From assembly GCA_025210155.1 (NCBI GenBank), contig JAOASE010000011.1, forward strand, positions 12,498-76,497: DNA of 64,000 bases. Reading direction: 5' to 3'. The notes beneath the pieces are model-generated. The model was not told the DNA's origin and did not search any database. It was given only the letters and a program-made list of their open reading frames with translations. This document shows positions 13,293 through 55,227 of this stretch, one piece after another. Position numbers and translations under genes: made by a program. This stretch comes from Alphaproteobacteria bacterium. GTDB taxonomy: Bacteria > Pseudomonadota > Alphaproteobacteria > Rs-D84 > CASDRH01. Position 1 is the first letter of the stretch. Each line of letters begins with the position of its first letter.

Positions 13293-13482
13293 TATAATTT
13301 TCATCAATCTTATCATAAATTTCTTGAAGATTTTCATAATCTGCTTTTATAAAAACATCTTCCTCAAACAAAATATTTCTATCTACATTCATTACACTTC
13401 TATTTGATATGTCTAGTAAAAACCACTATGAATATTTTCAAAAACTTAAAACTTATTTGATTTATTAATTTTTTCCACAACA

Positions 13483-17047: not shown

Positions 17048-17156
17048 TATTTAAAATCCTTTCAAAAATTTCCTAAACTCTTTAGTATTATCTTTAATCT
17101 TCATTAAAATTTTCTCATCCTTTAGACTTCTATTTTTCAACTCAAGATAACCATTA

Positions 17157-17378: not shown

Positions 17379-17380
17379 CT

Positions 17381-18795: not shown

Positions 18796-19748
18796 TACTT
18801 GCTTCTCCCTTTAAATTTATTAAATAATACATAAAACAAATATATAAATAGTAAAATAACAAAAAGATAAACAAGTGGACTAATAGTAATTCCAAATTTA
18901 CTATATTTTTTATACTCTGTAATAAGTAACAAGTAAGTCAAGCTTTCAGCTATCGCTAATAAAATTAGAAGCATAAACAAAAATTTATAAATACCTCCTT
19001 TTTCTATTTGAAAAGATCCATACCTTTTTACAAAAGTATTTACATAGTTGATAAGTAAAATTGAAAAGATCAATATGAAAATATAAACACCTTTTCCAAA
19101 AAGATGAATTTCTACTATAAAAATATTTAAAAATTTCTTCCAAATAGAAGTATTTTTCTCTTCAAAACTTTTAACACAACTATCTATATTTTCAAAATAT
19201 TCTATATCAAAATTTTTAATAAGTCCCTTAACGGATATATCAAGTTCTTTTCCATCTAGTTTTTTATACAAAATAGATGTACAAAAATCCTTACCAGCCT
19301 TTAAATAAAAAGGTTCTAGCATCCAATTTTTTTTCTTTTTCCATACGATATTATCTCTTGTTAAATCATCTGGTTTTTTATTCTTAAAATAAACATCAGA
19401 ACAAGCTTCTACATTTATTATTCTATTATCTTTATCATAAAGAGTTATAGAGTTAATAAAATCATCTTTAGCTATATCTAAAGCAGAAATATTCCTTATA
19501 TAAATAATCTTTGAAGAAACATCTTTTACATTAAAAAATTTCTTATTTGATAACAACTTCAAAGAATCTGAAGATATAAAATCATCTAACTTATAACTAT
19601 AAGAACTACCAATAATCAATTTATTTGGCTTTATTTTTTCTTTAGGATAAAAACTTATAACCATTGTTAATACAGTCAATAATATACTTATAATTCCTAT
19701 ATGATTTTTTCTTAAATAATGGTAAATATTTGTTTTAAGATCTCTCAT
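18795..19748 (-). CDS. Hypothetical multi-pass membrane protein (317 aa) embedded in the hsd operon
   Basis: It has an N-terminal TM helix, a roughly 170-aa soluble beta-rich segment, and three to four C-terminal TM helices. The ATG lies 2 nt after the hsdM TAG. Confidence 0.6.
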   Translation of the reverse strand: MRDLKTNIYHYLRKNHIGIISILLTVLTMVISFYPKEKIKPNKLIIGSSYSYKLDDFISSDSLKLLSNKKFFNVKDVSSKIIYIRNISALDIAKDDFINSITLYDKDNRIINVEACSDVYFKNKKPDDLTRDNIVWKKKKNWMLEPFYLKAGKDFCTSILYKKLDGKELDISVKGLIKNFDIEYFENIDSCVKSFEEKNTSIWKKFLNIFIVEIHLFGKGVYIFILIFSILLINYVNTFVKRYGSFQIEKGGIYKFLFMLLILLAIAESLTYLLLITEYKKYSKFGITISPLVYLFVILLFIYLFYVLFNKFKGRSK

Positions 19749-19750
19749 AA

Positions 19751-31102: not shown

Positions 31103-31180
31103 AAAATCTCTCCAATTTTATTAAAATATAAAACTATGTTAACATAATTTTATAGTAAAAACAACTATTAAGATATATTA

Positions 31181-31211
31181 GAAAAATAAATAAGCTCTCA
31201 ACAGAGAGCTT
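31181..31211 (-). terminator. Terminator after autotransporter 2
   Basis: AAGCTCTC-tgtt-GAGAGCTT is followed by ATTTATTTTT on the minus strand. Confidence 0.55.
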
Positions 31212-31238
31212 ATCTACTAATTCAAAACCTTTTAAAAA

Positions 31239-34145: not shown

Positions 34146-34245
34146 AAAAACTCTCCAATTCCCTTGATAATATAAAATTAATATATCACAAAAACAAATT
34201 TAAAACAAGAATTTAAAACTCTAAAATACAAGCTGACATTTAAAA

Positions 34246-34271
34246 AGCCCCCTATCGGGAGCTCTTTTTTT
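34246..34271. terminator. Hairpin terminator after autotransporter 3
   Basis: AGCCCCC-tatc-GGGAGCT with flanking A and T runs. It is a near copy of the 28069 hairpin. Confidence 0.6.
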
Positions 34272-34293
34272 AAGATAATATCTTCTTTTAAAT

Positions 34294-37200
34294 TTAGAAC
34301 ATATATTTACCTTTTATATAAATACTATTTGAGTCAAAATTCTCTCTAATTTCTTTTTCAAAATCGAAAGACATTTGATGACCTTCTTTATTTATATAAC
34401 TCATACCTAATCCAGTTCTTAAAATATTTCTACCCATATCTGGAGAGGTAAATGAAGTTCCCGCTAAACCTGTACTTAAAATAGTAGTATCAATCGGCAA
34501 AGCATTATCACCCATTTCATTAGCATATTCTAAATTAATATGAGGTATTAATTGTTCACCTTGTTCTGTTTCAAACAAATAAGAGAATTCAACACCTGCA
34601 CCTAATTGGAATGACTCCATATTAACAGACTCTACATGCAAATTATTAGCACTTCCTTTTTCATCATAACTATCTTGATTAACAGTTATATAAGTACTCT
34701 TAACAAATGGCATCCAAAACATATTATCCCCATCTTGATAAATAGTTCCATAATTCAATTGTAAAGATAATTGATCAGAATCATAATCTGCACTAGCAAT
34801 ATCTGTACCAGTATTTCTCTTTTGATCATAAGAACCAAAACCATAAGATAAAATACCATCTAAGAAACTATCATCTTCCATCTTATAAGTTCCATATAAA
34901 GCTAATTGAACCGATGTCATATCTGTAACAAAAGAATTATTGTTTCCATCAACATCGCCAGATGCATAACTTAATGCAAAACCAGCTAAAATATCTTCAT
35001 CTATCTTAGTATCATAACCAACAGTAACACCAGTTGAAGATGAATCATATCCAGCTGAAGTAATATTATTTTTAGCAGCATTCAAAGCTCCATCATAATT
35101 ATCACTTTGAGACATAATTTGTAACCAAACACCACTATCTTTTTCATCATCAAAATCAATCATTGATGCTACGTCAGAAGTAACATGAAATGCCATAGCA
35201 AATTGATTTTCTTCATAGAACTCTTTCTTCTTCTGAGCAACTTGTCTGTCTTGAACAATTCCCATAGTAACTGAAGAATTAGACACTGCCGAACTTAAAG
35301 AGGAAGCAGCACCACTAACAGCCGTAGCAACGTCAACTTGAACAGCTTGAACAGGACTTATAGCTTCAGTAGATTCAAAGAAAGGAGTTTCATCAAAAGT
35401 GAAAACAAGTTCGTTTCCAACTAATTGTAAAGTCCCATCAATATTATAATTTTCAATATCAAATGTTAAAGAAGATAAATCAGAACCCGATGCATCTGCT
35501 GTTGAAATAACAAGATTATCACCTTTTTCAAAAGAAGTAATCGCACTATACTCAGCAGTAGTGTCCATATTTGTATCTCTCATAGTCAAAGTAGTAGTAC
35601 CATCTAAGTTCATAAGAGAAGTATCTTTATTATCCATTGTTAAATATAAATCCAAATCAGACGCAGATATATTAACCGTTTCAGCAGATAATGTTGATGG
35701 CATATCAGCATGAACATTAGTCATATTTAAAACATCATCACCTTCCCCCATATCTATATCATAAGTAGCACTACTTAATTTACCATTACCGGAATAATCA
35801 AAAACATTATCTGAACCATAATATTCTATAGCCGAAGATTTAGATGCTGTAACAATTCCATTATTATTAAATTTACCTGTTAAATAAGCTGTATCATCAA
35901 ATACAATACCTTTTTCAGCACTAATTTCCCCTGTTAAATTTATATCGCCATCTATAAAAGATCCACTTTGTACAAACATACCTCTAGTTAAAGTGTCTGA
36001 AGCATCTTCAATTATAATATCTCCACTTATATTTAAGTCATCCAAAACCTTAGCATTAGAATAAAGATAAATACCATATATATAACCTGTCGGTTCTGTT
36101 TTTACAGAATTTAATTTAATATTACCTGAAAGATTAATCCCTTTATCAAAAGTAAAAGATTCCGCAATAACACCAAAGCTATAATCACCTCTAGCAGTTA
36201 TATCAGCATCACCTAAAATATTCACATCTCCAGTAGCAGAACCTCTTCTAAAATAATATGCATAAGCATTAACACCATTACCATTAAAATCACCTGCCAA
36301 TGTAAAATTCGTAAAATTAGAATTATAAATATATAAACCCATAACAGCACTATTTCTAGCTTCATAATTAACTGTACCATCGAAATAAAAATCTCCATTA
36401 AAAGTACTAGTTTGTAACATCAAAGGATAAGCATATTTATTTTCAGAAAAGATATCCATATTCATATGTAGATTTACATCTCCATTAAATGTAGTATTTG
36501 CCGGATAAAATCCAGCGCCTGTTAATTCTGACTTCATTTTCACATCAGCTACTACATTAACATCTCCATCGATAACACTATTATTGTTTAAATGAATTCC
36601 ATTTGCATTATTTGCAGTAGAAGTCAAATCCATATTTGACTTAATATCTATATCTCCAGCTAAATCAAGAGTTGAAAAGAAAATTCCTGTAGCGTGCATA
36701 GAAGCTTCAGCAACTATATCAGATTTAACATTAACATTCCCATTCACAGTAGAATCTTCAAGTAAAAAACCTGCAGCTCTATTATTACTAGATGCTATAT
36801 CAAAATTTCCATAACTATTTACATCCCCTTCAACAGTAGATTGATAAATAGCAAAACCATAATGTTTATTACCAGTAGCATTATATCCAACATCACCATA
36901 CATAGAAACATTTCCATCTACTATAGCATTTTCAAAAGAAACTCCTTGTCTTTCCCCTCCAGTAAAATCTCCATCAAAAAATAAATCAGCATAAATATTT
37001 ATATCAACATTCTCACCGACAGTATCATTCGTAAATTCACCAGTTAGAAACAAAGTTTTTTTAAGATCTGTGGTTTCAACTAAATTCTTTCCATCAACAC
37101 CGTTAATATTAATTACTTTAACATCTTTAACAACTGCATCTCCATTTAATGTCAATTGCTCCGTAATCAAAGTATCACCAACTTTATTTAAATTACATAC

Positions 37201-37347
37201 TCCATCAGTGCATTCCATATTAGCAACTACCGTGGCTTCACTGTTCTGCAAATCACCTGTAGTTCCCAACGTCCAAGAAACTTCCGCATTAGAATTTCCA
37301 GTAAATGCCATAGATAATAAAATAGTATAGAATGATACTTTTCTCAT
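34294..37347 (-). CDS. Type Va autotransporter, paralog 3 (1017 aa)
   Basis: The architecture matches the other two paralogs and the barrel ends YIKGKYMF. It is more divergent than the paralog 1/2 pair. Confidence 0.8.
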   Translation of the reverse strand: MRKVSFYTILLSMAFTGNSNAEVSWTLGTTGDLQNSEATVVANMECTDGVCNLNKVGDTLITEQLTLNGDAVVKDVKVININGVDGKNLVETTDLKKTLFLTGEFTNDTVGENVDINIYADLFFDGDFTGGERQGVSFENAIVDGNVSMYGDVGYNATGNKHYGFAIYQSTVEGDVNSYGNFDIASSNNRAAGFLLEDSTVNGNVNVKSDIVAEASMHATGIFFSTLDLAGDIDIKSNMDLTSTANNANGIHLNNNSVIDGDVNVVADVKMKSELTGAGFYPANTTFNGDVNLHMNMDIFSENKYAYPLMLQTSTFNGDFYFDGTVNYEARNSAVMGLYIYNSNFTNFTLAGDFNGNGVNAYAYYFRRGSATGDVNILGDADITARGDYSFGVIAESFTFDKGINLSGNIKLNSVKTEPTGYIYGIYLYSNAKVLDDLNISGDIIIEDASDTLTRGMFVQSGSFIDGDINLTGEISAEKGIVFDDTAYLTGKFNNNGIVTASKSSAIEYYGSDNVFDYSGNGKLSSATYDIDMGEGDDVLNMTNVHADMPSTLSAETVNISASDLDLYLTMDNKDTSLMNLDGTTTLTMRDTNMDTTAEYSAITSFEKGDNLVISTADASGSDLSSLTFDIENYNIDGTLQLVGNELVFTFDETPFFESTEAISPVQAVQVDVATAVSGAASSLSSAVSNSSVTMGIVQDRQVAQKKKEFYEENQFAMAFHVTSDVASMIDFDDEKDSGVWLQIMSQSDNYDGALNAAKNNITSAGYDSSSTGVTVGYDTKIDEDILAGFALSYASGDVDGNNNSFVTDMTSVQLALYGTYKMEDDSFLDGILSYGFGSYDQKRNTGTDIASADYDSDQLSLQLNYGTIYQDGDNMFWMPFVKSTYITVNQDSYDEKGSANNLHVESVNMESFQLGAGVEFSYLFETEQGEQLIPHINLEYANEMGDNALPIDTTILSTGLAGTSFTSPDMGRNILRTGLGMSYINKEGHQMSFDFEKEIRENFDSNSIYIKGKYMF

Positions 37348-43180: not shown

Positions 43181-43322
43181 GAACTTTCTCCAATAATAAT
43201 TTCTTTATACAGCTGATAGTAAAACCAACTCCAAACAATGTCAATCTATTTTTAATAGAAATTATTAATTAAAATCCCAAGAAAATAAAAAAAATCCCCG
43301 AAAAAATCCGAGAACATAAGAA

Positions 43323-43378
<56 letters not shown>

Positions 43379-43497
43379 TCCCATGGAAATAAAAAACTTA
43401 CAACAAACAAGAACAAACAATAATAATAAAATCAAAGACTTACAAAATTATTATTTATTCTCCATATTTACTATTTTTTCTCATTTATTAGCTCTAC

Positions 43498-43515
43498 TGT
43501 CCCACCAGTGTCCCA
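43498..43515 (+). promoter_or_regulatory. Arm-type repeat pair TGTCCCA-n4-TGTCCCA
   Basis: TGTCCCAccagTGTCCCA. The same dyad recurs at 55062..55079, and inverted at 54962..54979. Confidence 0.45.
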
Positions 43516-43527
43516 TTAAATTATATT

Positions 43528-43728
43528 TTATTTTTTAGAACCAATCTTTTCTTCATTGAATTTCTTTTCAATTTTCACTTCAATATCTCTCAAAACTCCA
43601 AATATAAGAAATAGTAGACCAACAATCATTGGTAAAAAATTATCAATAATTAATGAATTTGGCACAAATAAATTTAACATACCTATTCCCAAAAATATTA
43701 TTCCTAATATATAACTAATCATTTTCAT
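43528..43728 (-). CDS. Small two-TM membrane protein (66 aa)
   Basis: It has two hydrophobic helices and a charged tail. The start lies 4 nt after the stop of the HEPN gene. Confidence 0.5.
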   Translation of the reverse strand: MKMISYILGIIFLGIGMLNLFVPNSLIIDNFLPMIVGLLFLIFGVLRDIEVKIEKKFNEEKIGSKK

Positions 43729-43732
43729 CTCC

Positions 43733-44566
43733 TTATCTTATTATATTATCCCAATTATCTTTTATTAAGCTTGATAACTTATATAAATTTAATATTGATA
43801 AATAAGCCTCACTTTCAGATATTATTGTTTCTTCTCCATGAGCTGCATTATCTCTAAACTTTTTTATATAAAATGATAATGCCTCATACATATCTTGAAT
43901 ATTCTTATCAGTTCTTCCTAATGTACAGTCTCTTATTTCTTTTAATTTCCCAGTGTTGGAATATATTTCAATAGCACGATTTAACTTTTCAGTTTTAGTT
44001 TTTTTACTAGCTATTGCCAACAATATAGCTTCAGATGCGGAACCTGTCATTACACAACTTGCTGTATAAAAATTTTGTTCATAAGTATTTATAGCCTCTA
44101 AAGATCTTTGATAAAATGCATTACCAAATAATTCCTTAAATTCACCAAATATTTTAGAAAATTTTGAAGTAGTTATAAATAAAATATCATCTTTATTTTC
44201 AAACCACTTTTTACCCATAGATGTTAACGAATATCCATGATTTAATGTATTTGAATTAACACTCTGATAACTTGAAACTATAGATGTCTCATTAGGTCTT
44301 AAAATACCCTTATTTGTTAATAACCATAATGCGTCTAAAAATTGAGGATATAAAAATTTTAATTCCCTATATTGGGTAGCTGGTGATTGTGATAATGTAA
44401 TCCCATTATTATTACAGTACCATTTAACTAAATATGGCAACCATAAATCAAATCCACAATTCCTATTTGTAGATATATTTATTACACCACTTTGTATCAT
44501 CTCTATAATAAAATCAACACACTCATCTATAGATAATTTTTCTTTTACGTCATGCACATTTACCAT
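43733..44566 (-). CDS. HEPN-domain protein (277 aa), putative RNase
   Basis: The C-terminal helical domain carries an Rx4H motif, FRDNAAHGEE, of the DUF4145/AbiU2-like type. Confidence 0.5.
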   Translation of the reverse strand: MVNVHDVKEKLSIDECVDFIIEMIQSGVINISTNRNCGFDLWLPYLVKWYCNNNGITLSQSPATQYRELKFLYPQFLDALWLLTNKGILRPNETSIVSSYQSVNSNTLNHGYSLTSMGKKWFENKDDILFITTSKFSKIFGEFKELFGNAFYQRSLEAINTYEQNFYTASCVMTGSASEAILLAIASKKTKTEKLNRAIEIYSNTGKLKEIRDCTLGRTDKNIQDMYEALSFYIKKFRDNAAHGEETIISESEAYLSILNLYKLSSLIKDNWDNIIR

Positions 44567-44680
44567 AATCTAAACCCTTATTAGTTAATATAAAAAGACT
44601 ACTCTTGTATTCTTAAAAAAACAAGGAGATTATTTTCTTCTTTAGAATTTTTATTAAAAAATCATAACACTTGATAAATA

Positions 44681-45145
44681 CTAAAATTCATCTGGATCCA
44701 AATTGGTTAATAAATTAAATCTCGTTACTATACCAGATTTATACCTCAATTTATTAGAACTCAGTACAGCATATCTTACTTTATTAGAATTCAACATTCC
44801 CAAAATAAAATCACAAGCTTCTTTAGGAAGAAATAAGTTAATTCTAATACAATCCTTCATATCATCTATAAGACCTATAAAACTCCTCTCTTTATCTTCG
44901 TTTAAATCATACCTTGAATAAATCTTAAGTTCTATATCCTTAGCTTCTGAAATTTTCAATCTATCTGGTAATTCTCCAATCTTCCCTTTCAAAATTATTG
45001 AAAGTCTTTGGTAATAAGATATAAACTCCCAATCATTATTACGATAAATTCCTTGATTAGTTCCAAATCCATAATAAGCTTCCCAATCATCTACCTCGAA
45101 AAACCAACTAAACCATTCATCTTTTATTTTTCTCTCTTTAGGCAT
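44681..45145 (-). CDS. Hypothetical protein (154 aa)
   Basis: Long ORF. No motif was recognised. Confidence 0.45.
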   Translation of the reverse strand: MPKERKIKDEWFSWFFEVDDWEAYYGFGTNQGIYRNNDWEFISYYQRLSIILKGKIGELPDRLKISEAKDIELKIYSRYDLNEDKERSFIGLIDDMKDCIRINLFLPKEACDFILGMLNSNKVRYAVLSSNKLRYKSGIVTRFNLLTNLDPDEF

Positions 45146-45233
45146 ATCTACAACCCCTTAATATTAAAGAGAAACAAATCTCAAATACTAAAAAGAAGAA
45201 AGAGTTTTCCATAAGAAAAACTCAGATTCAAAT

Positions 45234-45482
45234 TTAATGACAAGTAATATACATTTCTTCTATAATATCATTACCCATAATATCTTGCATACCTCTAACA
45301 TCGTCAGTTCTATAACCTTTAGGACAAAGTATTTCAGCCTGTTGTTTGCAAGCATTTGCATTACTAGACATTTCACAATTTATCTTATACTGAGCTGGAG
45401 TACCACTGTTCAATTTCAAAACAGTAGGTGCACAAGCCGTCAAAGATAAAATTAAAGATATCATTAATATATTTTTATTCAT
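45234..45482 (-). CDS. Small lipoprotein (82 aa)
   Basis: The lipobox LSLTAC follows a signal sequence, and the mature part has four further Cys. An AAAGGAG RBS lies directly after the leader terminator. Confidence 0.65.
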   Translation of the reverse strand: MNKNILMISLILSLTACAPTVLKLNSGTPAQYKINCEMSSNANACKQQAEILCPKGYRTDDVRGMQDIMGNDIIEEMYITCH

Positions 45483-45501
45483 AATTAAACTCCTTTCTAT
45501 T

Positions 45502-45528
45502 AAAAAAGTCTACTAAGTAATAGTAGAC
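45502..45528 (-). terminator. Intrinsic terminator/attenuator at the 3' end of leader RNA copy B
   Basis: The minus strand reads GTCTACTAttactTAGTAGAC followed by TTTTTT, then AAAGGAG and an ATG. The 5' arm shares GTC with the upstream CTCCCAGTC helix strand. Confidence 0.6.
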
Positions 45529-45696
45529 TGGGAGTTCGTAACTGCGTAAAGACAGTGCCGGTATTTAGTGCAAGCACCTGGACATTCCCTAACCTCCCAG
45601 TCTGATAAAGACTAGAAAGGCAGGTTTTTGATTTCGGTCTGACCCTAAGGTTCTGCATTCAGACCGCTTTACGAGAGGCTACGAAACCCCAATCGA
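45502..45696 (-). ncRNA. Unclassified structured leader RNA, copy B
   Basis: It is a paralog of 5473..5672 with the same conserved blocks. Helix CGGTCTGA...TCAGACCG and the GGT/ACC pair (GGC/GCC in copy A) are present. A TATTAT -10 candidate lies at 45698-45703. Confidence 0.55.
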
Positions 45697-45712
45697 ATAA
45701 TACTACTCGACA

Positions 45713-45739
45713 TAAAAATAGTGTACCATCGGTACACTA
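45713..45739 (-). terminator. Terminator of the ABC-3C-like operon
   Basis: The minus strand reads TAGTGTACCgatGGTACACTA followed by TTTTTAT. Confidence 0.6.
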
Positions 45740-45765
45740 TTTAATCAAGCGTTTTATTTCTTTTA

Positions 45766-47550
45766 TTACCATTCAGGAAGATTGAACAATCTTCCACTAT
45801 CTCCACTTTCATCCAAAGTCTTTACAATATGAAAAATAGATGACAAATCTTCTATTTCATCCCCATTTAATTTTTTATTAGGAATATCTGAAGATATTGA
45901 TGATATTATTATTTGTATATTATATTCATTACAATACCTAATTATTAAATCTAATATTTTTTCCTTTTTTCTAGGTTCCAAAGTTTCAAACAAACCATCT
46001 AAATAAGTAAAATGTAAAAACTTATAATCTTTATAGTGTCTTAAAATGGATAAAACAAAAGCTATACATAAAATTTTTCCATAAGTATTACCATCATCTT
46101 CAGATGTATTTTTACCATCTTTTGTTATAAACTTTGCAGAAAAACTAGGATTACCCGTATCTGCAGGCTTCATAGAAATAATAGCATTCTTATCCAAAAC
46201 CTCAGAAACAATTTCTGAAAAAATCGTTCTAATTTTTGTATACTCTTCATTATTAGTATCTCTTTTTATATCTTCAATAAGAGAGTTTCTTACTGATATT
46301 AAACCATCTTTTTCCCTTTCCAAAATTCCAAGCTTTATAATATTTTCCTTTAATTCATTTAAGCTTATTAATTCCATTTTTTTATCAGATAAAAAGCCTT
46401 GTAATTTTTTATACTTATTTATAATATCCTTAGAATTTAAAATATTTATATATCTAGTTTTTTCATCATCTAATTCTTTTAACTTGTTTTCAACGACCCC
46501 CAACTCCTCTTCTGAATTTTTTAATTCGATCTTAAGCTGTTTATTTCTTTCCATCGTAATAGATTTATTAAAAGCTAATAATTCTTCATATGATTTTCTA
46601 ATCTGACTACTAAAACAAATACCACTCTCCATAAAAAGACTCTCAGCATTTTTTAATGAAAACTTTGTTTTTGAGCTAGAGATAGATTTTTTTAAATCAT
46701 AAATTTTATTTGTTATAACATATCTCTTTCTAGAAAATTCTAAAATATTTTTTTCTATATTTTCTATAAGATCTGTATTAACTTCTTTTTCCAAATTATA
46801 AAACTTAAGATTATCAAGTTCTTCTTCCTTTTTAGATATATCCTTTTCTAAATATAAAATTTTTCCCTGCACTACATCAATATCATCCTCATTTATTAAT
46901 GTTTTTAATCCCCTTATTTTACTATTAATATTTTCTATATTCTCATTTTCATCATAAATATTTAATAAAATATTATGGTTAAATCCTAACAAAGATAATA
47001 AATGAGGCTTCCATTCTTTATCTAAAATATTAGTATCCATTTTAAATGGGTTTTCAAAATTATTTTGAAGCCTTATAAGATAACCTAATGTTTTCCTATA
47101 AGAAAAATCATTTAATGATTGAACATTCAAAAAGCCTCTAATTATACTCTTAGCATTATCAATTGATATTTTATAATGATCAAACTCTCTTTCTTCCAAG
47201 TTTATAAAATATTGATGTTTAGTATCTGATCTTTTTATACTTATTTTAGACTGATTTTCTACTCCTCTTATTATTGTAACATACTCACCATCACCTACCT
47301 TCAATTCTAATGCAAATATAAGCTCCTCAAATACATCTTTATGCTCTATAAGAAAAATATTATTTTTATTAAGTTTTTTCAAAAAACAAAAATCTAAAAG
47401 TTTTGCAAAAGTTGTCTTTCCTAAATTATGGCTATCTCTTTCTTTATTTAAAAAATCTTTAATATTAGCTAAAACAAGATTTAACCCATCTTCAAAAAAA
47501 AGATCTTCAAAAACATCTGGTTTATTACAATATAATTTTGATAATCTCAT
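45766..47550 (-). CDS. ABC-type ATPase with coiled-coil insert (DUF2326/ABC-3C type)
   Basis: The N-terminus reads MRLSKLYCNKP..F..GLNLVLA....DSHNLGKTTF (Walker A). A long coiled-coil middle is followed by the Walker B-like FLHFTYLDGLFETL. Confidence 0.65.
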   Translation of the reverse strand: MRLSKLYCNKPDVFEDLFFEDGLNLVLANIKDFLNKERDSHNLGKTTFAKLLDFCFLKKLNKNNIFLIEHKDVFEELIFALELKVGDGEYVTIIRGVENQSKISIKRSDTKHQYFINLEEREFDHYKISIDNAKSIIRGFLNVQSLNDFSYRKTLGYLIRLQNNFENPFKMDTNILDKEWKPHLLSLLGFNHNILLNIYDENENIENINSKIRGLKTLINEDDIDVVQGKILYLEKDISKKEEELDNLKFYNLEKEVNTDLIENIEKNILEFSRKRYVITNKIYDLKKSISSSKTKFSLKNAESLFMESGICFSSQIRKSYEELLAFNKSITMERNKQLKIELKNSEEELGVVENKLKELDDEKTRYINILNSKDIINKYKKLQGFLSDKKMELISLNELKENIIKLGILEREKDGLISVRNSLIEDIKRDTNNEEYTKIRTIFSEIVSEVLDKNAIISMKPADTGNPSFSAKFITKDGKNTSEDDGNTYGKILCIAFVLSILRHYKDYKFLHFTYLDGLFETLEPRKKEKILDLIIRYCNEYNIQIIISSISSDIPNKKLNGDEIEDLSSIFHIVKTLDESGDSGRLFNLPEW

Positions 47551-47789
47551 TATTCCCCCACATACTCAATATTATCACCATTCACTCTATATTCAATTAG
47601 ACCTAATAAAAATAAAAAGCCCAAACTCTCTATAAAAAGAATCTCACCAACAGTTCCATATTCTTTTTTAATTTTTTCTTTTATTTCATCCAATTCTAAA
47701 ATCCTAACTTGTCTCAACTTCTTTAATATAAACAAGCTAATTGATAATAAATTTTTATCTGGATTCATATGTTTATTAGGTAAAAGCAT
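47550..47789 (-). CDS. Small wHTH-like middle component (79 aa) of the ABC-3C-like system
   Basis: Its stop overlaps the ATPase ATG (ATGA-type junction at 47550). Its size and position match the ABC-3C middle component. Confidence 0.5.
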   Translation of the reverse strand: MLLPNKHMNPDKNLLSISLFILKKLRQVRILELDEIKEKIKKEYGTVGEILFIESLGFLFLLGLIEYRVNGDNIEYVGE

Positions 47790-47794
47790 TTTCT

Positions 47795-48718
47795 TTATTT
47801 TTTCCCTATATCACAATGATAATACATATAATATACAAAAGTTTTTGTTAATAATTTATTACTACTAAAAACATTATCTCTTTCAAAGAAGTAATCTAAA
47901 ATAGCTTCAAAAACCAAATCAAAAGATTTAGAAGAGGATAACATAGCCACTTTAGTATCTATACCATCAATAACATCATTATATAATTTTTGTTCCTCAG
48001 GACCTTCTAAAAAATTTTTTATTTTATAAAAATTATGAAGATATTTCTCTTTTATTTTATCTGAATAATATTCAGATAAATTATTTATTTTATTTTTTTC
48101 ATCAAATTTAATTCTTTCCCCAATTACAGGTATCAATTTATCAGAACTAAATTCTTTTTTAAAACCTATTAAAAGATCTTTTAAATCAGAAAAATCTATC
48201 TTTAAATTATCAAACGGTCTAATAAATTCAATTTTATCTTGAATTTTAGGAAATTCAAAAAGCCAATCATCCATCTCTTCCGTTCCAAATAAATGAATAT
48301 TAGACTCACTAATACCAACTTTATTTGAAATATATTTTTTAATATCCATTTCAGATATACTAGATAAGCGCCTATTTGCAAATAAAAAGTAATGATCTAA
48401 TTTTTTAGCATCATATAATTTTTTAATACGAATTATTTCTTTATTTATAATTGATGAATTATTCTTAAAAAAGTCATTATCTGAAAAAGTAGAATTTTTA
48501 TTAATAGTATGCTTAGCCTGAATTACCATCTTTCCACTCATTGTACTCTTACTACTAGGATATAATTCAGAAACACCTTCAAAAAAAGCATCTCTACCAC
48601 CATCTTTTCCTTTTGAGAATTTTTTAACACCAGGACCTAAAAGGTTATAACATATGTTATATACAATATCTTCAAAAACACCATCATCATATTCAGAATA
48701 CAATATCTTCTGACTCAT
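47795..48718 (-). CDS. Mrr-like restriction-endonuclease-fold effector with a C-terminal helical domain (307 aa)
   Basis: GKDGGRDAFFEG followed by MVIQAKHT gives a D...QxK nuclease core. It is the first gene of the three-gene operon. Confidence 0.55.
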   Translation of the reverse strand: MSQKILYSEYDDGVFEDIVYNICYNLLGPGVKKFSKGKDGGRDAFFEGVSELYPSSKSTMSGKMVIQAKHTINKNSTFSDNDFFKNNSSIINKEIIRIKKLYDAKKLDHYFLFANRRLSSISEMDIKKYISNKVGISESNIHLFGTEEMDDWLFEFPKIQDKIEFIRPFDNLKIDFSDLKDLLIGFKKEFSSDKLIPVIGERIKFDEKNKINNLSEYYSDKIKEKYLHNFYKIKNFLEGPEEQKLYNDVIDGIDTKVAMLSSSKSFDLVFEAILDYFFERDNVFSSNKLLTKTFVYYMYYHCDIGKK

Positions 48719-48799
48719 AAGTCCCTCCTACACTAAAAACTAAACCTTCTATTTTTCATAAAAATAATATAACATATATAAACATCCTTTTAAAGAATT

Positions 48800-49261
48800 T
48801 TATGAACCTTTTTTTAACCTAAAATCTCCCAAAATGCTCGCATGTCCATCTCTTTCAACAAAAACCTTTTTAAATATCTCAATTTGATCCTCTATTCCAA
48901 AATATGTCTTATTCTCATAACATACTTCACCAATATACATTTCCCATTCTTCCCAACCAATTTTATGCTGATTATCAAACACTAATCTAGCTAAGTCTAA
49001 CTCTGCTTTCGAAGCCTTTATTAAATTATCCCACTTCAAAAATCCAACCATACAAGCTATAATATGTTGAGCCTTCATCAAAGTAAAATTCTCTTCATCT
49101 ATATCATAAGATAAAACAACTGTATCTATATCAAAATATTTTGGAGTGTATTCATACAAAACTCCACTAGCAACCTCATCAAAATAAGGTTTTTTGGTTT
49201 CAAAATCTTTGTAAAGTTTCTTAGCTTGAAGTTTGAAATATTGAATATTTGCATTTGTCAT
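48800..49261 (-). CDS. Hypothetical protein (153 aa)
   Basis: Long ORF. No motif was recognised. Confidence 0.45.
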   Translation of the reverse strand: MTNANIQYFKLQAKKLYKDFETKKPYFDEVASGVLYEYTPKYFDIDTVVLSYDIDEENFTLMKAQHIIACMVGFLKWDNLIKASKAELDLARLVFDNQHKIGWEEWEMYIGEVCYENKTYFGIEDQIEIFKKVFVERDGHASILGDFRLKKGS

Positions 49262-49564
49262 AATAACATAATCCTTATAATTTATTTAAGCTTATTATCC
49301 ATATATTTTGCGTTCGTAACCTATTTTTAGATAATAATCTTAAATCAGGTTATATTATTTTATGTTGGTTGATAAAAGTATCTTTACACGAACGAGTAAG
49401 CTAACCAACTAGCGATGAAAATATTATATTACATAGCATATTTTTAAGCAAGGTTAAAGTTGTATCATCGTCCCGACTCAAGCTTTTTTATTTTTCTAAA
49501 AAGTAGTACTGCTATATAAAAAACCAACTACTTTTTTATCGAAAAACTAAAAAAGAAAATTAAC

Positions 49565-50086
49565 TTAATGATAAATTTCATTACAAGTTACAAGTCTGGA
49601 AAAATCAACTTTTTTTCCTTTAAAATCAAGCTCTTTCATTAGATAAATAATCAATTTATCTGAGTAAACTTCCTTAGCAAAAATCTCGCGCGCGTACATA
49701 CGCCTGCGTATATGTGTCGGAAAACTATCTATTTTTTTACATCCAAAAAAAGAATTATACCTAATAATATCTTGAATATCCTTTAGCTTTTTATCAAACA
49801 TCTCAAGAGAAATATCTCTTATATTTAAAATAATATGAGTATGATACATATCATATCTTCCCTTTTCTATAACTATAAAAAATCGTAAAGAATTTTTTAT
49901 CCAATGCCTTCCAAGTACTCTACGATTTAAAACCCTCATTATCCATCTTACTTCTTCTTTTAAAAATTCCTCACTCTTAACTTCATTATAATACCTAATT
50001 GTTAAAAATACTATTTTACCATTATCAAAATCTATAATATCCTTTAACCAACGATTAATCACTGCATAATTATTACTAACTTGCAT
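49565..50086 (-). CDS. Possible HUH-type replication initiator (inovirus Gp2-like)
   Basis: FFIVIEKGRYDMYHTHIILN resembles the HUH motif context of small rolling-circle Rep proteins. It sits where a satellite replication gene would be expected. Confidence 0.35.
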   Translation of the reverse strand: MQVSNNYAVINRWLKDIIDFDNGKIVFLTIRYYNEVKSEEFLKEEVRWIMRVLNRRVLGRHWIKNSLRFFIVIEKGRYDMYHTHIILNIRDISLEMFDKKLKDIQDIIRYNSFFGCKKIDSFPTHIRRRMYAREIFAKEVYSDKLIIYLMKELDFKGKKVDFSRLVTCNEIYH

Positions 50087-50219
50087 AACACATATCCTTC
50101 TAATTTTAGATTAAACAACTTATATAAAAACCAAGCCAATCCTTTTCTAAGCTAATATATAAATCTATGTAATAAGATCACCGGTGATAAATATGTTTAA
50201 ATTTTATTTCCATTCGGAA

Positions 50220-50432
50220 TTATTTCGATAAATTTTTAGAGAACTGTTCTCTAAGTACCCTTTTAGCACTTTCAGTTAAATTCTTTTTTTGATAGGGATT
50301 TTTACCGAAACGAAATTCATGCAATGAACAACCTTTAACAGGACAAAGTTGCACTTCTTTAGAGCTATTAAAACAACAGTCTAAGCACTTCACTCTAATT
50401 GCTTTAAGAGGCGTATTTTTTTTCTTCTTCAT
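50220..50432 (-). CDS. Small zinc-finger protein (70 aa)
   Basis: A CLDCC...CPVKGCSLH Cys cluster is present. The start lies 2 nt after the stop of the Xis-like gene. Confidence 0.5.
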   Translation of the reverse strand: MKKKKNTPLKAIRVKCLDCCFNSSKEVQLCPVKGCSLHEFRFGKNPYQKKNLTESAKRVLREQFSKNLSK

Positions 50433-50434
50433 AA

Positions 50435-50653
50435 TTACACCTCTAAGCTCTTTTTATCAATCCATTGAAAAAAAGCATCAACATCTATAAGAATCTTTTT
50501 ACCAATTCTTTTAAGAACTTTTTGTTCATCCATACCATTTAATTTAGAATTAAAAATATAACCTCTTATTGATCCATGTGAAAAAGCCGGAAAACTTTCC
50601 ACAAATTGTTTTACAGTCATCAGACTTGATACTGTGATTTGATTATTTTTCAT
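50435..50653 (-). CDS. Excisionase/AlpA-like HTH DNA-binding protein (72 aa)
   Basis: MTVKQFVESFPAFSHGSIRGYI...ILIDVDAFFQWI fits the Xis/MerR-type winged helix. Confidence 0.55.
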   Translation of the reverse strand: MKNNQITVSSLMTVKQFVESFPAFSHGSIRGYIFNSKLNGMDEQKVLKRIGKKILIDVDAFFQWIDKKSLEV

Positions 50654-50734
50654 AACAATCCTCTCTTTTTTTTAAATAAGAATTAATTTTCCTATTTACT
50701 AAAAAGAGTAAAACACGAATTAATGTTTAATTCA

Positions 50735-51457
50735 TTAACTCTCTTTCCCTAAATTTTGGGAAAATCTAGCATAATTTTTTTTATAATAATTATATGCATT
50801 TAAAAATAATTTAGAATTACGATCTAATCTAAAAAATTTATGCATTAAAAATATATATTCTTTAAAGAATACTTCATTATTCTTAGACTCTCTTAAATTA
50901 GGTTTTCTATCAGATAATAAAATATAAATAGAAATAAGAATATCCAAAAAACCTTCTTTAGAAACTCTATTAATCTTAATCTTTGACGGGTATTTCTTTT
51001 CAGCCCTTCTACAAACCTCTTCCCAATACTTAATATCATTCTCAATTTTAGTTGATATAAACTGCATTCTATCTTTCCTTAAACGGAAATGAGAATTCCT
51101 AATTAAATCTATATCCATAGAATTCAAATTAGAAATTTTATCATTAAGATTTTTAAAAGCATTTTCTAACTGTTTTATTTTTCTAGCAGGTTCCTTTTCT
51201 TCAAAGTCTTCCTGATTATAATAATCTCTAAAGACATAAGAATTCAAACCTCTCAAAATATTCAAATATGCTAAATTAATATCTATTTTACCCTCATTTA
51301 AAGTTATTTTCTTAAGTAAATTTAAACATTCCCCTTCTATACTTTTCAACTCTACATTTGGTAAAGAATTCTTTAATTCATAAACTTCATATTCCAAATC
51401 TTCTTTAGAAAAATTCTTATATTTTAAATGAGTAAAACAAAACTGCTGTAGATCCAT
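50735..51457 (-). CDS. Hypothetical protein (240 aa)
   Basis: Its ATG overlaps the integrase stop at 51457. No motif was recognised. Confidence 0.45.
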   Translation of the reverse strand: MDLQQFCFTHLKYKNFSKEDLEYEVYELKNSLPNVELKSIEGECLNLLKKITLNEGKIDINLAYLNILRGLNSYVFRDYYNQEDFEEKEPARKIKQLENAFKNLNDKISNLNSMDIDLIRNSHFRLRKDRMQFISTKIENDIKYWEEVCRRAEKKYPSKIKINRVSKEGFLDILISIYILLSDRKPNLRESKNNEVFFKEYIFLMHKFFRLDRNSKLFLNAYNYYKKNYARFSQNLGKES

Positions 51458-52524
51458 TATCTATCCCCAAACATTTTTTGATTCATTCTTTCAACAACAG
51501 AGCTTGTATGACTTTCAGATAAATGAGAATATCTCTTAACCATTTGCAATGTCTTATGACCTAATATCTCTGCAATTTCAGATGGAGTAGCTCCATTCAT
51601 AGCCAAATAACTTGCTGCAGTATGCCTTAAATCATGAAATCTAAAATTCTTAATATCAGCTTTCTTTAAAGAAGTTTCCCAACTATCCCTAATTTGAATA
51701 GGAACCTTTTTATCTTTAATAGATGGAAAAACTAAATTACTCTCATAATCTCGCTTATTATAAAGATCTTTTACCATCTCTAAAGCCTTACCCTTTAAAG
51801 GAAGAACTCTTTTCTCTCCATTCTTTGTCTCAAATAAAACAATCTTATTCCCCTTAATATCTACATTACTCCATTCTAAATTCAATATCTCACCTTGCCT
51901 AGCCCCAGTAGATAGAGCAATCATAACAATTACTTCTAAATAGGGACTCTTACTCTGAGAAACAACTTCTAATAGTCTTACCCTCTCATCATCTGAAAGA
52001 TATCTGACAACACCTTTAGGCTCTTCTAAATTAGATATTTTATTAAATGGATTACTCTCCAATAAATTCCACTCATTAACAGCTATACTAAAACAATGAC
52101 TCAAAGCTGAAGTATATCTATTAACCGTTGAAAAAGATCTCTTCTCTCCATTCTTTTTAGGTATATCCAACAGCTTTTGTCTAGCTTTAACAAGAGCTGA
52201 AGAATTCAGTTCTAACAACAACACATAACCTATAGTCTTTTTCCACCATTCTAACTTAGCTTTAACATCTTCCAACCTCTTAGGTTTATTAACAAGATAT
52301 TCATCAATATACTTATCTATAAGCTGAGATAGATTAAACTTTTTAGCATTAGAATGAGAAAAATATTTTCCCCTTCTTATATCAGCCTCTGTTTGCTGAG
52401 CCCATAACCTAGCATCTGTAAGTCTTTCAAAACTAGCCGTTTCTTGAGGCTTCCCTTTTATTCTTATACGAACTCTATATGAAAACTTATTATTTCCCAA
52501 TGGTCTCTTTTCTATCGTCGCCAT
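51457..52524 (-). CDS. int: Tyrosine recombinase (phage integrase family)
   Basis: Motifs seen: ALSTGARQGEIL, HDLRHTAASYL, and LGHKTLQMVKRYSH. Confidence 0.9.
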   Translation of the reverse strand: MATIEKRPLGNNKFSYRVRIRIKGKPQETASFERLTDARLWAQQTEADIRRGKYFSHSNAKKFNLSQLIDKYIDEYLVNKPKRLEDVKAKLEWWKKTIGYVLLLELNSSALVKARQKLLDIPKKNGEKRSFSTVNRYTSALSHCFSIAVNEWNLLESNPFNKISNLEEPKGVVRYLSDDERVRLLEVVSQSKSPYLEVIVMIALSTGARQGEILNLEWSNVDIKGNKIVLFETKNGEKRVLPLKGKALEMVKDLYNKRDYESNLVFPSIKDKKVPIQIRDSWETSLKKADIKNFRFHDLRHTAASYLAMNGATPSEIAEILGHKTLQMVKRYSHLSESHTSSVVERMNQKMFGDR

Positions 52525-52527
52525 AAT

Positions 52528-53205
52528 CTACTCCCAAATTTTCTTATGTGTTATTTCTAAAATTTCATATTTTTTTATCTTTAAACCATTTTTAATATCA
52601 TCAAAAAAAACTACATTAAAATTAGACTCTAACTCATTTAATTTAGTATCATAAATTTTTGAAACATAATATTTATCTCCAAAGTAAACCAATATTTCTT
52701 TTTTATCACCAATCTCCTCTAATACAGAATATTTTTTTTGAAGATAAGTAGGTTGAAGAATAAATATGATTAAAGAAAAGAATATAAATTTTGAAAACTT
52801 TTCTTCTTTTATATTTTCTAAAAATGAATTTAAATAAATTGCTATTGTATAACCTATACTAAGATTTCCTAAAATTTCATTTTTCAAAAAAACTCCTAAC
52901 AAAATAATAAAAATAGGACTTAATAAAATTAAATAACTCCAAAAAACACTTTTAAACATATTTGAGAGTTTTAAAGAAAATAAATATAAGAAATAAACTA
53001 AAAAAATTATTATAAAACTTTTTCCCAATATAAGTAAACAATCATTATATGTTATTTTTATTAAATAAAAAGGTATATCAAATTTAACAATAATATTTTG
53101 CCTATAATGAATATATGTCTTTAAATAGACTATTCCTAAAATAAATAAAGGTAAAATAACACCTAGATAATTAGAATTTAGTATTCTTTTCATCTTTTCT
53201 TCCAT
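52528..53205 (-). CDS. Multi-pass membrane protein (225 aa), partner of the RT
   Basis: About five TM helices are followed by a ~70-aa soluble C-terminus. It starts 18 nt after the RT stop and ends 3 nt before the int start. Confidence 0.55.
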   Translation of the reverse strand: MEEKMKRILNSNYLGVILPLFILGIVYLKTYIHYRQNIIVKFDIPFYLIKITYNDCLLILGKSFIIIFLVYFLYLFSLKLSNMFKSVFWSYLILLSPIFIILLGVFLKNEILGNLSIGYTIAIYLNSFLENIKEEKFSKFIFFSLIIFILQPTYLQKKYSVLEEIGDKKEILVYFGDKYYVSKIYDTKLNELESNFNVVFFDDIKNGLKIKKYEILEITHKKIWE

Positions 53206-53223
53206 AACGACTCCTAAATATTT

Positions 53224-54843
53224 TTAAAAAGGGATTTCCTCAATATCATCATCAATAGACTCAACTTCAATAAATTTCATAAAGTTAATATTATTATCTT
53301 TCATAAACTTAAATTCCTTACCCATAACTCCCTTGTATGGATTTCCAATAATTCCATTAAAAAACAACTCATATTCCAACAACCAATAAGAATTTTCAAA
53401 GTTCATATATTCTATAACATCATCATCATTCTTATTTTGAATAGAAGATCTATAATATTTTTTTAATACATCTATATCCCGACTCTTATTATCGGATTTA
53501 AAATAATAAAATATCATCAATAATGATAAACAGTCCTTCATTTTAAATTTATTATTTTTATAAAAATTATCTGAGTTAATCCAAAAATCATATTTAATAG
53601 ATAAATATAAACACCAAACAAAAACATCTATCTGTTGTTTCTCAACACTAGAAATAATAAGCTTATCTATATATAAATTCATAGATATATCATGAACCCC
53701 AAATTTTTCAAAAAAAACATCTAACAAGGATATCAAATATGGATACTTAAATATCATTTGTATTAAGCTTTTTAATATAAAATTATATTTTTGATCATCC
53801 ATATCTTCTACAGTATTTAAAAGAGTTTTCATTCCAAACTTATATACTTTACCAAAATTTAAAACGGAATGTTTATGTAATAAATCTATAAATAACTTTA
53901 TAGATGTCTCCTCATCTTTCAAATCAAAATTTTTAATATCATAAATCCAATTTTCATAAAAAGTATTAGGAATACTTTCTACAGAGAATTTAAAGTCATT
54001 TAAAGATAATTTATATTTATATAATTCTCTCCTTAAAATATTTCTAAATTTTTCAACTTCCAAATCATCTTTAGCATAAAAAACATAATCATCAATAAAC
54101 CTATAATAATTTTCAAATTCATCTCTTAGAACACTATCTATCTTGGAGAGTAAAATATCTGCTATCACATAAGAAGTATCTGGTCCTATAGGAATTCCGT
54201 AACTTTCTCTACTATCTAAATTCATAATAGTATTTTCTAACTTATTATTAAATAATTCAGTATTATTTCTATGTTTTTTAGCTTCACTTTTTCCTAAAAT
54301 AGCCCAGGATATAGAGTGTGAATAAATTGAATCATAAAATTTAGTTATATCAAATTTAACTTTATATTTAGAAAATAATTTATAATCTAAATCAAAATCT
54401 TCTTCAAAATATTTATAAGAAGACATATCAAACAATCTACCATCTTTTTTCATAGACACTAAATTAGGATTAACTTCACCAGTCCCCATATATTCCCAAT
54501 TCTTTTTAAAATACTCATACAAGTCACTTTCCCAATAAAAAGATATACAATTCACCAAATCAAAATATGCTAAAAAATTAGGTATTTTAAGACCTCTAAC
54601 TTCATTTTTATCTCTAGTTAAAGGAAAATAAAGAGATAAAGTAGAGTTATTTTTCAATAAAGATATATAATTTTCAAAATCTATTTTCCTATAGTAAACA
54701 TTTCCAAAATTCTCAGAGTTGAAACAAGGAGGTAAATGTTCTGGAAATAAACCATATTTCAATAGTCTTGAAGCTAAATCATGTCTATTAGAAACATATC
54801 TAATATTATTATTATAAGAACTCATAAAAACCAACCTTTCCAT
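53224..54843 (-). CDS. AbiK/Abi-P2-like (class 1 UG/Abi) reverse transcriptase
   Basis: RT motifs A (FDITKFYDSIYSHSISW), B' (YGIPIGPDTSYVIADILLSKID) and C (YRFIDDYVFY) are present. The spacing and the GKSEAKKHR segment parallel AbiK as I recall it. A ~250-aa helical C-terminus follows. Confidence 0.7.
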   Translation of the reverse strand: MERLVFMSSYNNNIRYVSNRHDLASRLLKYGLFPEHLPPCFNSENFGNVYYRKIDFENYISLLKNNSTLSLYFPLTRDKNEVRGLKIPNFLAYFDLVNCISFYWESDLYEYFKKNWEYMGTGEVNPNLVSMKKDGRLFDMSSYKYFEEDFDLDYKLFSKYKVKFDITKFYDSIYSHSISWAILGKSEAKKHRNNTELFNNKLENTIMNLDSRESYGIPIGPDTSYVIADILLSKIDSVLRDEFENYYRFIDDYVFYAKDDLEVEKFRNILRRELYKYKLSLNDFKFSVESIPNTFYENWIYDIKNFDLKDEETSIKLFIDLLHKHSVLNFGKVYKFGMKTLLNTVEDMDDQKYNFILKSLIQMIFKYPYLISLLDVFFEKFGVHDISMNLYIDKLIISSVEKQQIDVFVWCLYLSIKYDFWINSDNFYKNNKFKMKDCLSLLMIFYYFKSDNKSRDIDVLKKYYRSSIQNKNDDDVIEYMNFENSYWLLEYELFFNGIIGNPYKGVMGKEFKFMKDNNINFMKFIEVESIDDDIEEIPF

Positions 54844-54961
54844 TTTCTTAATTAAACTCTATAACTATCCTCCACAAAAGTCAACACTGGAGAAAAAACC
54901 GATGAATAAAACCCTAAAACATTATACTATTCAAGACATTCATAAACAAATATGAAATTCA

Positions 54962-54979
54962 TGGGACAATTACGGGACA
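54962..54979 (-). promoter_or_regulatory. Arm-type repeat pair, inverted orientation
   Basis: TGGGACAattacGGGACA is the reverse complement of TGTCCC-n5-TGTCCCA. Confidence 0.4.
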
Positions 54980-55061
54980 AATATCTTAACAAACACCAGA
55001 GACAAACAAGGAGTTTATTACTACTCATTCTTCTTATTTATTGCAGTTTTTTATTTTCAAC

Positions 55062-55079
55062 TGTCCCACGAGTGTCCCA
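55062..55079 (+). promoter_or_regulatory. Arm-type repeat pair TGTCCCA-n4-TGTCCCA
   Basis: TGTCCCAcgagTGTCCCA lies 60 nt from the tRNA 3' end. Confidence 0.45.
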
Positions 55080-55139
55080 GAGACATAAAAAAAGAGCTTA
55101 AAGAAAATTCTCAATCTTCCTTAAACCCTTGTAAAATAA

Positions 55140-55227
<88 letters not shown>

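Follow-up and report, generated by a model that had tools for sequence, protein, structure and literature searches.

A structured leader RNA with an intrinsic terminator ahead of small envelope-protein genes in defence-rich DNA of a low-GC alphaproteobacterium: a candidate OFF-by-default attenuator

Three copies of a terminated leader RNA

The 64,000-nt stretch analysed here (the window) covers positions 12,498 to 76,497 of contig JAOASE010000011.1 (assembly GCA_025210155.1) from an uncultured low-GC alphaproteobacterium whose housekeeping proteins belong to 90% clusters with 1-4 members. It carries two copies, A and B, of a structured leader RNA that ends at an intrinsic terminator and precedes a gene for a small envelope protein, and a third copy, C, was found on a metagenome contig. 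A reading of the window made from its letters alone (the sequence-only reading) had placed copy B at 45502-45696, which spans UCGAUU to the end of the T-run, and had described conserved blocks common to copies A and B. The blocks are present: the two copies are 71% identical over 239 nt (~5451-5683 in copy A), with long identical blocks, and their homology runs from about the transcription start site (TSS) to the ATG and then stops. All features of copies A and B given below are on the minus strand, on which the copy B leader is ~210 nt long.

A putative sigma-70 promoter of copy B was located by eye at 45720-45748 (TTGATT at 45748-45743, 17 nt, TACACT at 45725-45720), and the TSS is predicted near 45713. 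The promoter overlaps the 3' arm of the terminator hairpin that closes the upstream operon, AAAUAGUGUACC-GAU-GGUACACUAUUU plus a U-run (45714-45741; -19.9 kcal/mol in RNAfold). This operon had been called ABC-3C-like, and copy B had been taken for a transcription unit of its own. The operon is a real ABC-3C system, composed of CTD12, an MC component and a DUF2326/PDC-M68B ATPase. The independence of copy B is also supported, in that a promoter-like site stands at an equal distance from the element in all three copies, strong in A and C and weak in B.

Downstream of a 5'-proximal hairpin, P0 (GUCGAGUA/UAUUCGAU, 45692-45711 in the minimum free energy (MFE) fold), lies the structured core of copy B (45530-45690), in which stems P1 and P2 lead into a four-way junction with P3, P4 and P5. 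P0 is conserved in copy A with one-sided changes, and copy C has an equivalent hairpin; the P0 3' arm competes with an extension of P1. The closing helix proposed from the letters alone is P1, in which GGGGUUUCGUAGC (45690-45678) pairs with GUUACGAACUCCC (45542-45530); the 3' half of the latter strand belongs to the switch sequence described below. An internal loop, CUCU/CA, separates P1 from P2, which is formed by CGUAAAG (45667-45673) and CUUUACG (45545-45551). P3 (45635-45666) is the hairpin CGGUCUGA...UCAGACCG. It had been presented as an 8-bp hairpin shared between the copies and is real in copy B, but of it copies A and C retain just the 5-bp base; this base, CGGUC/GACCG, becomes CAGUC/GACUG in copy C through a change of pair 35/70 from G-C to A-U. 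The A-rich single-stranded junction J3/4 (AAAUCAAAAA, 45625-45634), identical in A and B, is followed by hairpin P4 (CCUGCCUUUCUAGUC ... GACUGGGAGGUUAGG, 45588-45624, -11.8 kcal/mol), which contains several G-U pairs, and by the P5 region (45556-45584), with an invariant AUGUCCAG and a loop with a conserved UAAA.

Directly 3' of P1 stands the predicted intrinsic terminator, AGUCUACUA-UUACU-UAGUAGACU (45502-45529), with a 9-bp stem and U6. The AAAGGAG and the ATG of an 82-aa Cys-containing lipoprotein, both noticed earlier, do follow, as a ribosome-binding site (RBS, 45496-45490) and a start codon (45482-45480) within 45480-45496. The lipoprotein (45234-45482) has the lipobox LTAC and a C-terminal EMYITC, and its four further Cys are invariant in two homologues. 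A second terminator is located 3' of this gene (45202-45223), which renders the copy B cassette monocistronic; copy C is arranged alike.

Copy A has the same layout. Its promoter, TTGAAT-17-TATAAT (5695-5723), scored 10/12 in the promoter scan and is followed by the structured core (5507-5666) and a terminator, GUCCAC...GUGGAU with an inner hairpin and U9 (5473-5505, -10.1 kcal/mol), whose stem is an interrupted 10 bp. The gene behind it encodes an orphan 114-aa membrane protein with three transmembrane (TM) segments (5109-5453). The proteins downstream of A and B are unrelated. Kinship between the second genes downstream of the two copies was also considered and rejected.

Both cargo proteins were orphans in a word-indexed protein search. 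An exhaustive HMMER search gave two full-length relatives of the copy B lipoprotein. The first, P0130 (56% identity), is encoded on a JGI metagenome contig, L106, with a 333-nt spacer upstream. A covariance model built from copies A and B only (R1) matches this spacer end to end (L106 2060-2216; 30 bits, E ~3e-9), which gives copy C. Copy C is much more diverged than A and B are, and its contig is unrelated to the window. It has a promoter at the same upstream distance (TTGACT-17-TATAAT, 11/12), and a terminator of -13.7 kcal/mol plus U6, then an RBS and an ATG; another terminator stands behind the lipoprotein gene. Its neighbours on the 3-kb contig are a DNA methyltransferase and a small winged helix-turn-helix protein. 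The second relative, P0132 (41% identity; L107 563-802), is found 29 nt past ribosomal protein S16 in a core-genome setting. A model scan found no leader RNA upstream of it on L107, indicating that the lipoprotein family occurs with and without the RNA. Portability of the RNA, as proposed earlier, is thereby supported: it precedes an unrelated membrane protein in copy A and a lipoprotein family in copies B and C, and one member of that family does without it. The RNA is nevertheless partly gene-linked, as two of the three copies precede the same lipoprotein family.

Each of the three copies thus presents a predicted terminator with a stem-loop and a U-tract, followed within ~20 nt by an RBS and an ATG, the open reading frame (ORF) starting 20-25 nt past the U-tract. 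With the TSS as predicted, the element would lie in a 5' untranslated region (5'-UTR) in all three. Promoter and terminator scans of the three copies revealed no evident separate promoter for the cargo.

The P5 region was also considered as a site of leader-peptide attenuation, which we rejected. A Shine-Dalgarno (SD)-like GGGAGG (GGGAUA in copy C) is placed 7-9 nt before AUGUCCAG, at 45584-45564 in copy B, at L106 2150-2170 in copy C and from 5560 onward in copy A, giving the arrangement GGGAGG-N7-AUG. The mini-ORF ends at the conserved UAA and reads MSRCLH in B and MSSPSG in C, but these 6 codons compare with ~40 in copy A, where a 2-nt indel makes it longer, and the SD-like sequence is inside P4. 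Conservation of this region is probably at the RNA level.

Covariation supports the folded RNA

Next, we asked how well the proposed fold is supported by the sequences. Folding energies compared with those of shuffled sequences gave z-scores of -4.4 (B), -3.7 (A) and -5.6 (C), each copy folds on its own into the same architecture, and the independent MFE fold of copy C also has the 5' hairpin. An RNAalifold consensus of A and B comprises one structure of 51-54 pairs. Between these copies 16 of 51 pairs differ, and all 16 still pair (11 with two-sided and 5 with one-sided changes). By comparison, random substitution of the same number of paired positions kept ~33 of 51 pairs on average and 44 at most in 20,000 trials. 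In a formal count of the two-copy alignment, 100% of cells were paired, versus 30-49% when partners were slid.

Copy C adds compensatory changes in P1, P2, P3 and P4. Six of the seven P2 pairs differ at both positions when A is compared with B, and again in copy C, and P4 has double changes at 4 pairs in the three-copy comparison. Across A, B and C, 96.7% of cells are paired and 16 pairs carry changes on both sides, counts inflated by the fitting of this three-sequence alignment to the model although copy C's own fold agrees with them; the slid controls gave 28-48% paired cells and 0-4 double changes. The element is therefore a conserved structured RNA domain backed by covariation.

The strand of this RNA could also be assigned. 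The covariance model scored 196 (B) and 193 (A) bits on the minus strand, compared with 12 and 9 on the plus strand, and the A/B pairing includes 13 G-U cells. This asymmetry indicates that the transcript of the minus strand folds, and argues against a symmetric DNA palindrome. In base composition, the three GC-richest 161-nt stretches of the window, which has 28% GC, are copy B, tRNA-Ser and copy A, the cores of the two copies reaching 47-49% (49% in B).

Alternative pairings at the terminator base

An unbiased search for every helix that both window copies could adopt returned, as the longest, the competing helix that had been proposed as GACUGGGAG/CUCCCAGUC. It extends to 10 Watson-Crick pairs in both copies, AGACUGGGAG/CUCCCAGUCU in B and GGACUGGGAG/CUCCCAGUCC in A, which differ by one compensatory pair; a helix of at least 10 bp occurs in 1.5-1.8% of the shuffles of each sequence. 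In copy B, its 5' strand (45594-45603) is also the P4 3' strand. Its 3' strand is the switch sequence (45525-45534), which can find further partners in the P1 5' strand (with a GAUU extension) and in the terminator 3' arm. In copy C the GACUGGGAG/CUCCCAGUC core becomes GACUGGGAU/AUCCCAGUC. There the last pair of the competing helix changes from G-C to U-A, together with a C to A change in the P4 5' strand and a G to U change in the P1 5' strand. This coordinated change at four positions keeps P1, P4 and the competing helix paired, as would be expected were selection acting on all three.

In a second alternative, AGUC at the start of the terminator stem can pair with a tetranucleotide just 5' of P1 that reads GAUU in copies A and B and GGCU in copy C. 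As these bases also belong to the P0 3' arm, they create a chain from P0 through the P1 extension to the terminator. The sequence UCCCAGUC, which runs from the end of P1 into the beginning of the terminator stem, is invariant in the three copies. The sequence-only reading had described a terminator sharing bases with the competing helix; consistent with this, the 5' base of the terminator overlaps both of the conserved alternative pairings, and the competing helix covaries in copy C.

The predicted energies rank these states in a definite order. Sequestering AGUC(U) in copy B weakened the terminator from -10.8 to -2.7 or -1.9 kcal/mol, and sequestering AGUC weakened it from -10.1 to -4.1 kcal/mol in copy A and from -13.7 to -7.7 kcal/mol in copy C. 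Relative to the MFE, the terminator fold costs 0, being itself the MFE in A, B and C, whereas the P1 extension costs +1.5 (A), +5.2 (B) or +9.0 (C) kcal/mol and the competing helix +12 to +18 kcal/mol. These values point to a strong terminator by default, with read-through requiring an outside input. The P1 extension over AGUC, being cheaper than the competing helix, may be the real antiterminator: on these models it would be within reach of ordinary stabilisation by a ligand or by tertiary contacts, whereas the competing helix would need P4 to be opened.

The reading that we favour, and hold to be moderately probable, is that of a cis-acting 5' leader with conditional intrinsic termination, a riboswitch-like attenuator that is OFF by default. 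Transcription would start ~22 nt before the closing stem, from a sigma-70 promoter belonging to the element itself, and the nascent RNA would fold P0, then the closing stem (P1, P2) and then the four-way junction (P3, P4, P5). The terminator hairpin would form right after P1, so that most transcripts would stop ~20 nt short of the RBS. Alternatively, UCCCAGUC would pair with the P1 5' extension (GAUU in A/B, GGCU in C), in competition with P0, or with the P4 3' strand (GACUGGGAG or GACUGGGAU). Either pairing would take AGUC from the terminator stem, the stem would collapse, and RNA polymerase would read into the envelope-protein gene. The balance between these outcomes would be shifted by an input, which may be a small molecule or ion bound at the junction, a protein, or another RNA. 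That the leader switches, in this direction and in response to such a signal, we infer from the alternative pairings, which are conserved and covarying, overlap the base of the terminator and would destroy it if formed.

Several observations weigh against such a switch. The predicted equilibrium population of the alternative pairings is ~0: whatever the length of the nascent transcript, the competing helix has a probability of ~0, which rises to 0.5 only in copy A with the P4 5' strand masked, and the terminator fold is favoured by 12-18 kcal/mol. On energetics alone, the element could be a constitutive terminator. The junction nucleotides of a would-be ligand pocket are only partly conserved in copy C, in which J3/4 is shortened from AAAUCAAAAA to UAAAAA and keeps its AAAAA. 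The copy B promoter scores 8/12, under the scan threshold, and with so weak a promoter some of the transcription of copy B may have to come from the ABC-3C operon by read-through. The cargo genes display no coherent metabolic association. Finally, the inflated three-copy pair counts come from only three sequences, two of them from one genome.

The energetic ranking would suit a leader that senses nothing, in which a constitutive attenuator holds a potentially harmful envelope protein at a fixed low level while the 5' fold protects the mRNA. The place of P0 at the extreme 5' end agrees with this as well. However, a ~160-nt four-way junction with invariant junction and loop blocks and three-way covariation exceeds the needs of a dimmer, for which a bare terminator would do, and we find this account distinctly improbable.

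A stand-alone small RNA (sRNA) gene is the least improbable of the rivals, though still unlikely. The ~210-nt terminated transcript would function in trans or bind a protein, and the ORF would be reached by incidental read-through. An sRNA gene would explain the element's own promoter, its strong terminator and the terminated fold as MFE in three copies; several helices are conserved in sequence besides pairing, as in a recognition surface, and a GC-rich body is typical of noncoding RNA (ncRNA) genes. Yet in three copies an ORF with a strong RBS and lacking its own promoter is found 20-25 nt past the U-tract, with homology ending at its ATG, and the covarying pairings over the base of the terminator would have no role in an sRNA. 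Terminated riboswitches can also act in trans, and thus the sRNA and attenuator readings are not mutually exclusive.

The position of a structured RNA directly upstream of a terminator in a mobile element also recalls processive antitermination, in which an RNA such as put of HK022 or EAR modifies RNA polymerase to ignore the terminators that follow. We give this reading very little credence. Rfam returned no match, EAR included, the conserved pairings at the terminator base point to structural competition, and the B and C cassettes are monocistronic and short, leaving little purpose for processivity.

Terminator-type riboswitches and attenuators are among the known systems closest to the attenuator that we favour. 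They share with the leader the 5'-UTR location, the conserved multi-helix domain closed by P1, the terminator abutting P1 and the variety of downstream genes, and the conserved switch sequence of the leader has predicted partners that would exclude one another. The leader differs from them in that its antiterminated states are far less stable than the terminated one, its gene context points to no ligand, its cargo consists of orphan envelope proteins in defence islands and not of metabolic or transport genes, and it has no Rfam match. T-box leaders offer an analogy for a possible trans-acting trigger, as leaders of ~200 nt that govern the choice between terminator and antiterminator through an external macromolecule. 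By contrast, our leader has neither the T-box sequence nor an Rfam T-box hit, its cargo is not aminoacyl-tRNA-related, and its host is alphaproteobacterial.

As to the signal, the RNA might sense phage attack or envelope damage through a nucleotide second messenger or an ion flux and serve as a plug-in switch of mobile defence islands, a proposal that we regard as speculative and rather improbable. If true, such a sensor would reserve the expression of accessory envelope proteins, for example surface-exclusion lipoproteins or membrane effectors, for times of need, and no earlier riboswitch class would have been devoted to cargo of anti-phage systems or mobile elements. If the leader is a working switch, it would add a new family to the terminator-based leader RNAs, in an unusual self-contained cassette of promoter, sensor, terminator and RBS that can precede different small envelope proteins in the defence islands of a poorly known low-GC alphaproteobacterial lineage. 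It would then also provide a handle on how accessory genes of defence islands are silenced and then induced, and possibly a compact default-OFF control part.

Distribution and genomic setting

We then compared the window with Rfam 15 (4227 families), and only tRNA-Ser passed its gathering threshold. Permissive scans of copies A and B gave noise only, with at most 17 bits where 49-382 are needed. Judged against Rfam 15, the element represents a new family, of which three members are known. In genome, metagenome and viral contig collections, block patterns (exact and gapped) found only chance matches inside coding genes, as judged by reading the matches or scoring them with the models. Neither blastn of copies B and C nor tblastn of the lipoprotein found a match among plasmids and phages, and two covariance models, R1 and R2, run over ~1.09 Mb of fetched loci recovered only the three copies. 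The loci around relatives of the flanking glycosyltransferase contained no copy; the nearest of these relatives, at 68% identity, are annotated as Alphaproteobacteria or Rickettsiales metagenome-assembled genomes. As further guides to the lineage, a tRNA-Ser pattern matched many phyla and was of no help, and the best exonuclease matches did not exceed 45% identity. The ABC-3C ATPase and the KAP NTPase yielded no relatives among viral sequences. The contigs that carry window proteins are all 100% identical to the window, which indicates the same strain.

In kind, the element resembles the orphan RNA candidates obtained from GC-rich, long intergenic regions (PMC6429828, PMC8632094, PMC11109978), with the same GC-rich block, narrow distribution and covariation; the leader is set apart by its absence from Rfam 15 and its three representatives. 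The three-sequence covariance model constitutes a starting point for a wider metagenome search. One contig bears on how easily copies are recovered: a Logan contig of SRR21418663 (L101) stops at window position 5580, inside copy A, at GACUGGGAGG, a block shared with copy B. Short-read assemblies may break there, which could partly explain the difficulty of finding the element.

A contig ending inside a repeat, the presence of two copies within the 64-kb window and the long terminal inverted repeat formed by P1 might suggest a selfish palindrome with no regulatory role, resembling a miniature inverted-repeat transposable element, a repetitive extragenic palindrome or a Rickettsia palindromic element. 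Such an origin is scarcely credible. The window holds only two copies, the further 1 Mb of loci none, and no target-site duplication is seen. The homology runs past P1 on both sides, to P0 and to the RBS/ATG, and the G-U pairing is strand-specific. At three loci, one of them in another organism, the element stands in the same place with respect to promoter and ORF.

Copy B had been placed in a tRNA-Ser island, and it does lie in the 11.9 kb between tRNA-Ser and a repeat of its 3' end. This integrative island (43318-55227, minus strand) has tRNA-Ser(UGA) (55140-55227) at one end. Its ends are marked by a 61-nt direct repeat of the tRNA-Ser 3' end (~43318-43378 and 55135-55195, 98% identical), with an exact 36-mer at 43327-43362. 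The island includes a DRT4-type reverse transcriptase (RT), a tyrosine integrase and the ABC-3C system. Copy A has a Gabija pair (GajA/GajB) on one side and a KAP/PifA-like NTPase on the other, with another integrase nearby, and defence or restriction-modification (R-M) genes surround all three copies. A common integrase family for the two islands was considered and rejected, since the similarity is 33% and confined to the catalytic domain.

In this defence-island context, and with a promoter, an RNA, a Rho-independent terminator and a protein gene in succession, the locus is laid out like a type III toxin-antitoxin (TA) module such as ToxIN or AvcID, for which that layout and island residence are described in PMC10511110. 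The RNA would then be an antitoxin, the terminator would set the ratio of RNA to toxin, and the toxin would be freed when infection shuts off transcription. A type III antitoxin binds its own toxin, which in ToxIN-type systems also processes that RNA; here, however, one RNA precedes two unrelated exported or membrane proteins, which makes direct neutralisation of a toxin by the RNA implausible. The cargoes, an exported lipoprotein with a signal peptide and an integral membrane protein, are not cytoplasmic RNA-binding enzymes. The RNA lacks tandem repeats of the ToxI type, and PADLOC gave no hit for either cargo. A type III module is accordingly hardly to be expected. No relative of either cargo was found in Pfam, PADLOC or PDB, and structure prediction of the lipoprotein gave a generic small alpha/beta fold without a significant fold match.

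Other classes of structured nucleic acid were also compared with the element and rejected. An integron attC site was dismissed because there are no core sites and the element is upstream of the ORFs. For OMEGA, IS110 bridge or TnpB guide RNAs, no IscB, TnpB or IS110 is adjacent, the neighbours being the cargo genes, ABC-3C, the KAP NTPase and the methyltransferase. Retron msr-msd and defence-associated reverse transcriptase (DRT) ncRNAs share with the leader a structured ncRNA, a long closing inverted repeat and a defence island, and a DRT4-type RT is present in the copy B island. This candidate was rejected as well: the only RT is 7.5 kb from copy B, and none is found near copy A or on the 3-kb contig of copy C.

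The RT (53224-54843, minus strand) is DRT4/AbiK-like (PADLOC Drt4, 7e-95; Pfam RVT_1) and stands next to tRNA-Ser with ~300 nt of non-coding DNA between; as a member of the AbiK/DRT4 group, it is presumably a class 1 DRT. Enzymes of that class make DNA without a template, according to PMC13174585. The integrase of this island occupies 51457-52524, with the RT gene ahead of it. Downstream of the lipoprotein cassette, a 277-aa protein (43733-44566, minus strand) has a sub-threshold match to HEPN_MAE_28990 (E = 0.009), and together with its neighbours of 154 aa and 66 aa (TM) it may form one more defence module, at the island's far end.

Defence systems in the window as a whole number at least five, namely Gabija, a KAP/PifA-like system, type I R-M, ABC-3C and DRT4. 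The type I R-M system is complete (HsdR, HsdS and HsdM) and lies between the two islands (13483-21343, minus strand). Next to the integrase at 9009-10187, an 83-nt direct repeat (10578-10660 and 13215-13297, 81% identical) brackets 2.6 kb with a gene resembling a LuxI-type autoinducer synthase (11302-12045); these repeats may be att sites or belong to another repeat family. Three tandem genes of ~1000 aa are located at 28118-37347 on the minus strand, and the two that were scanned contain autotransporter beta-domains.

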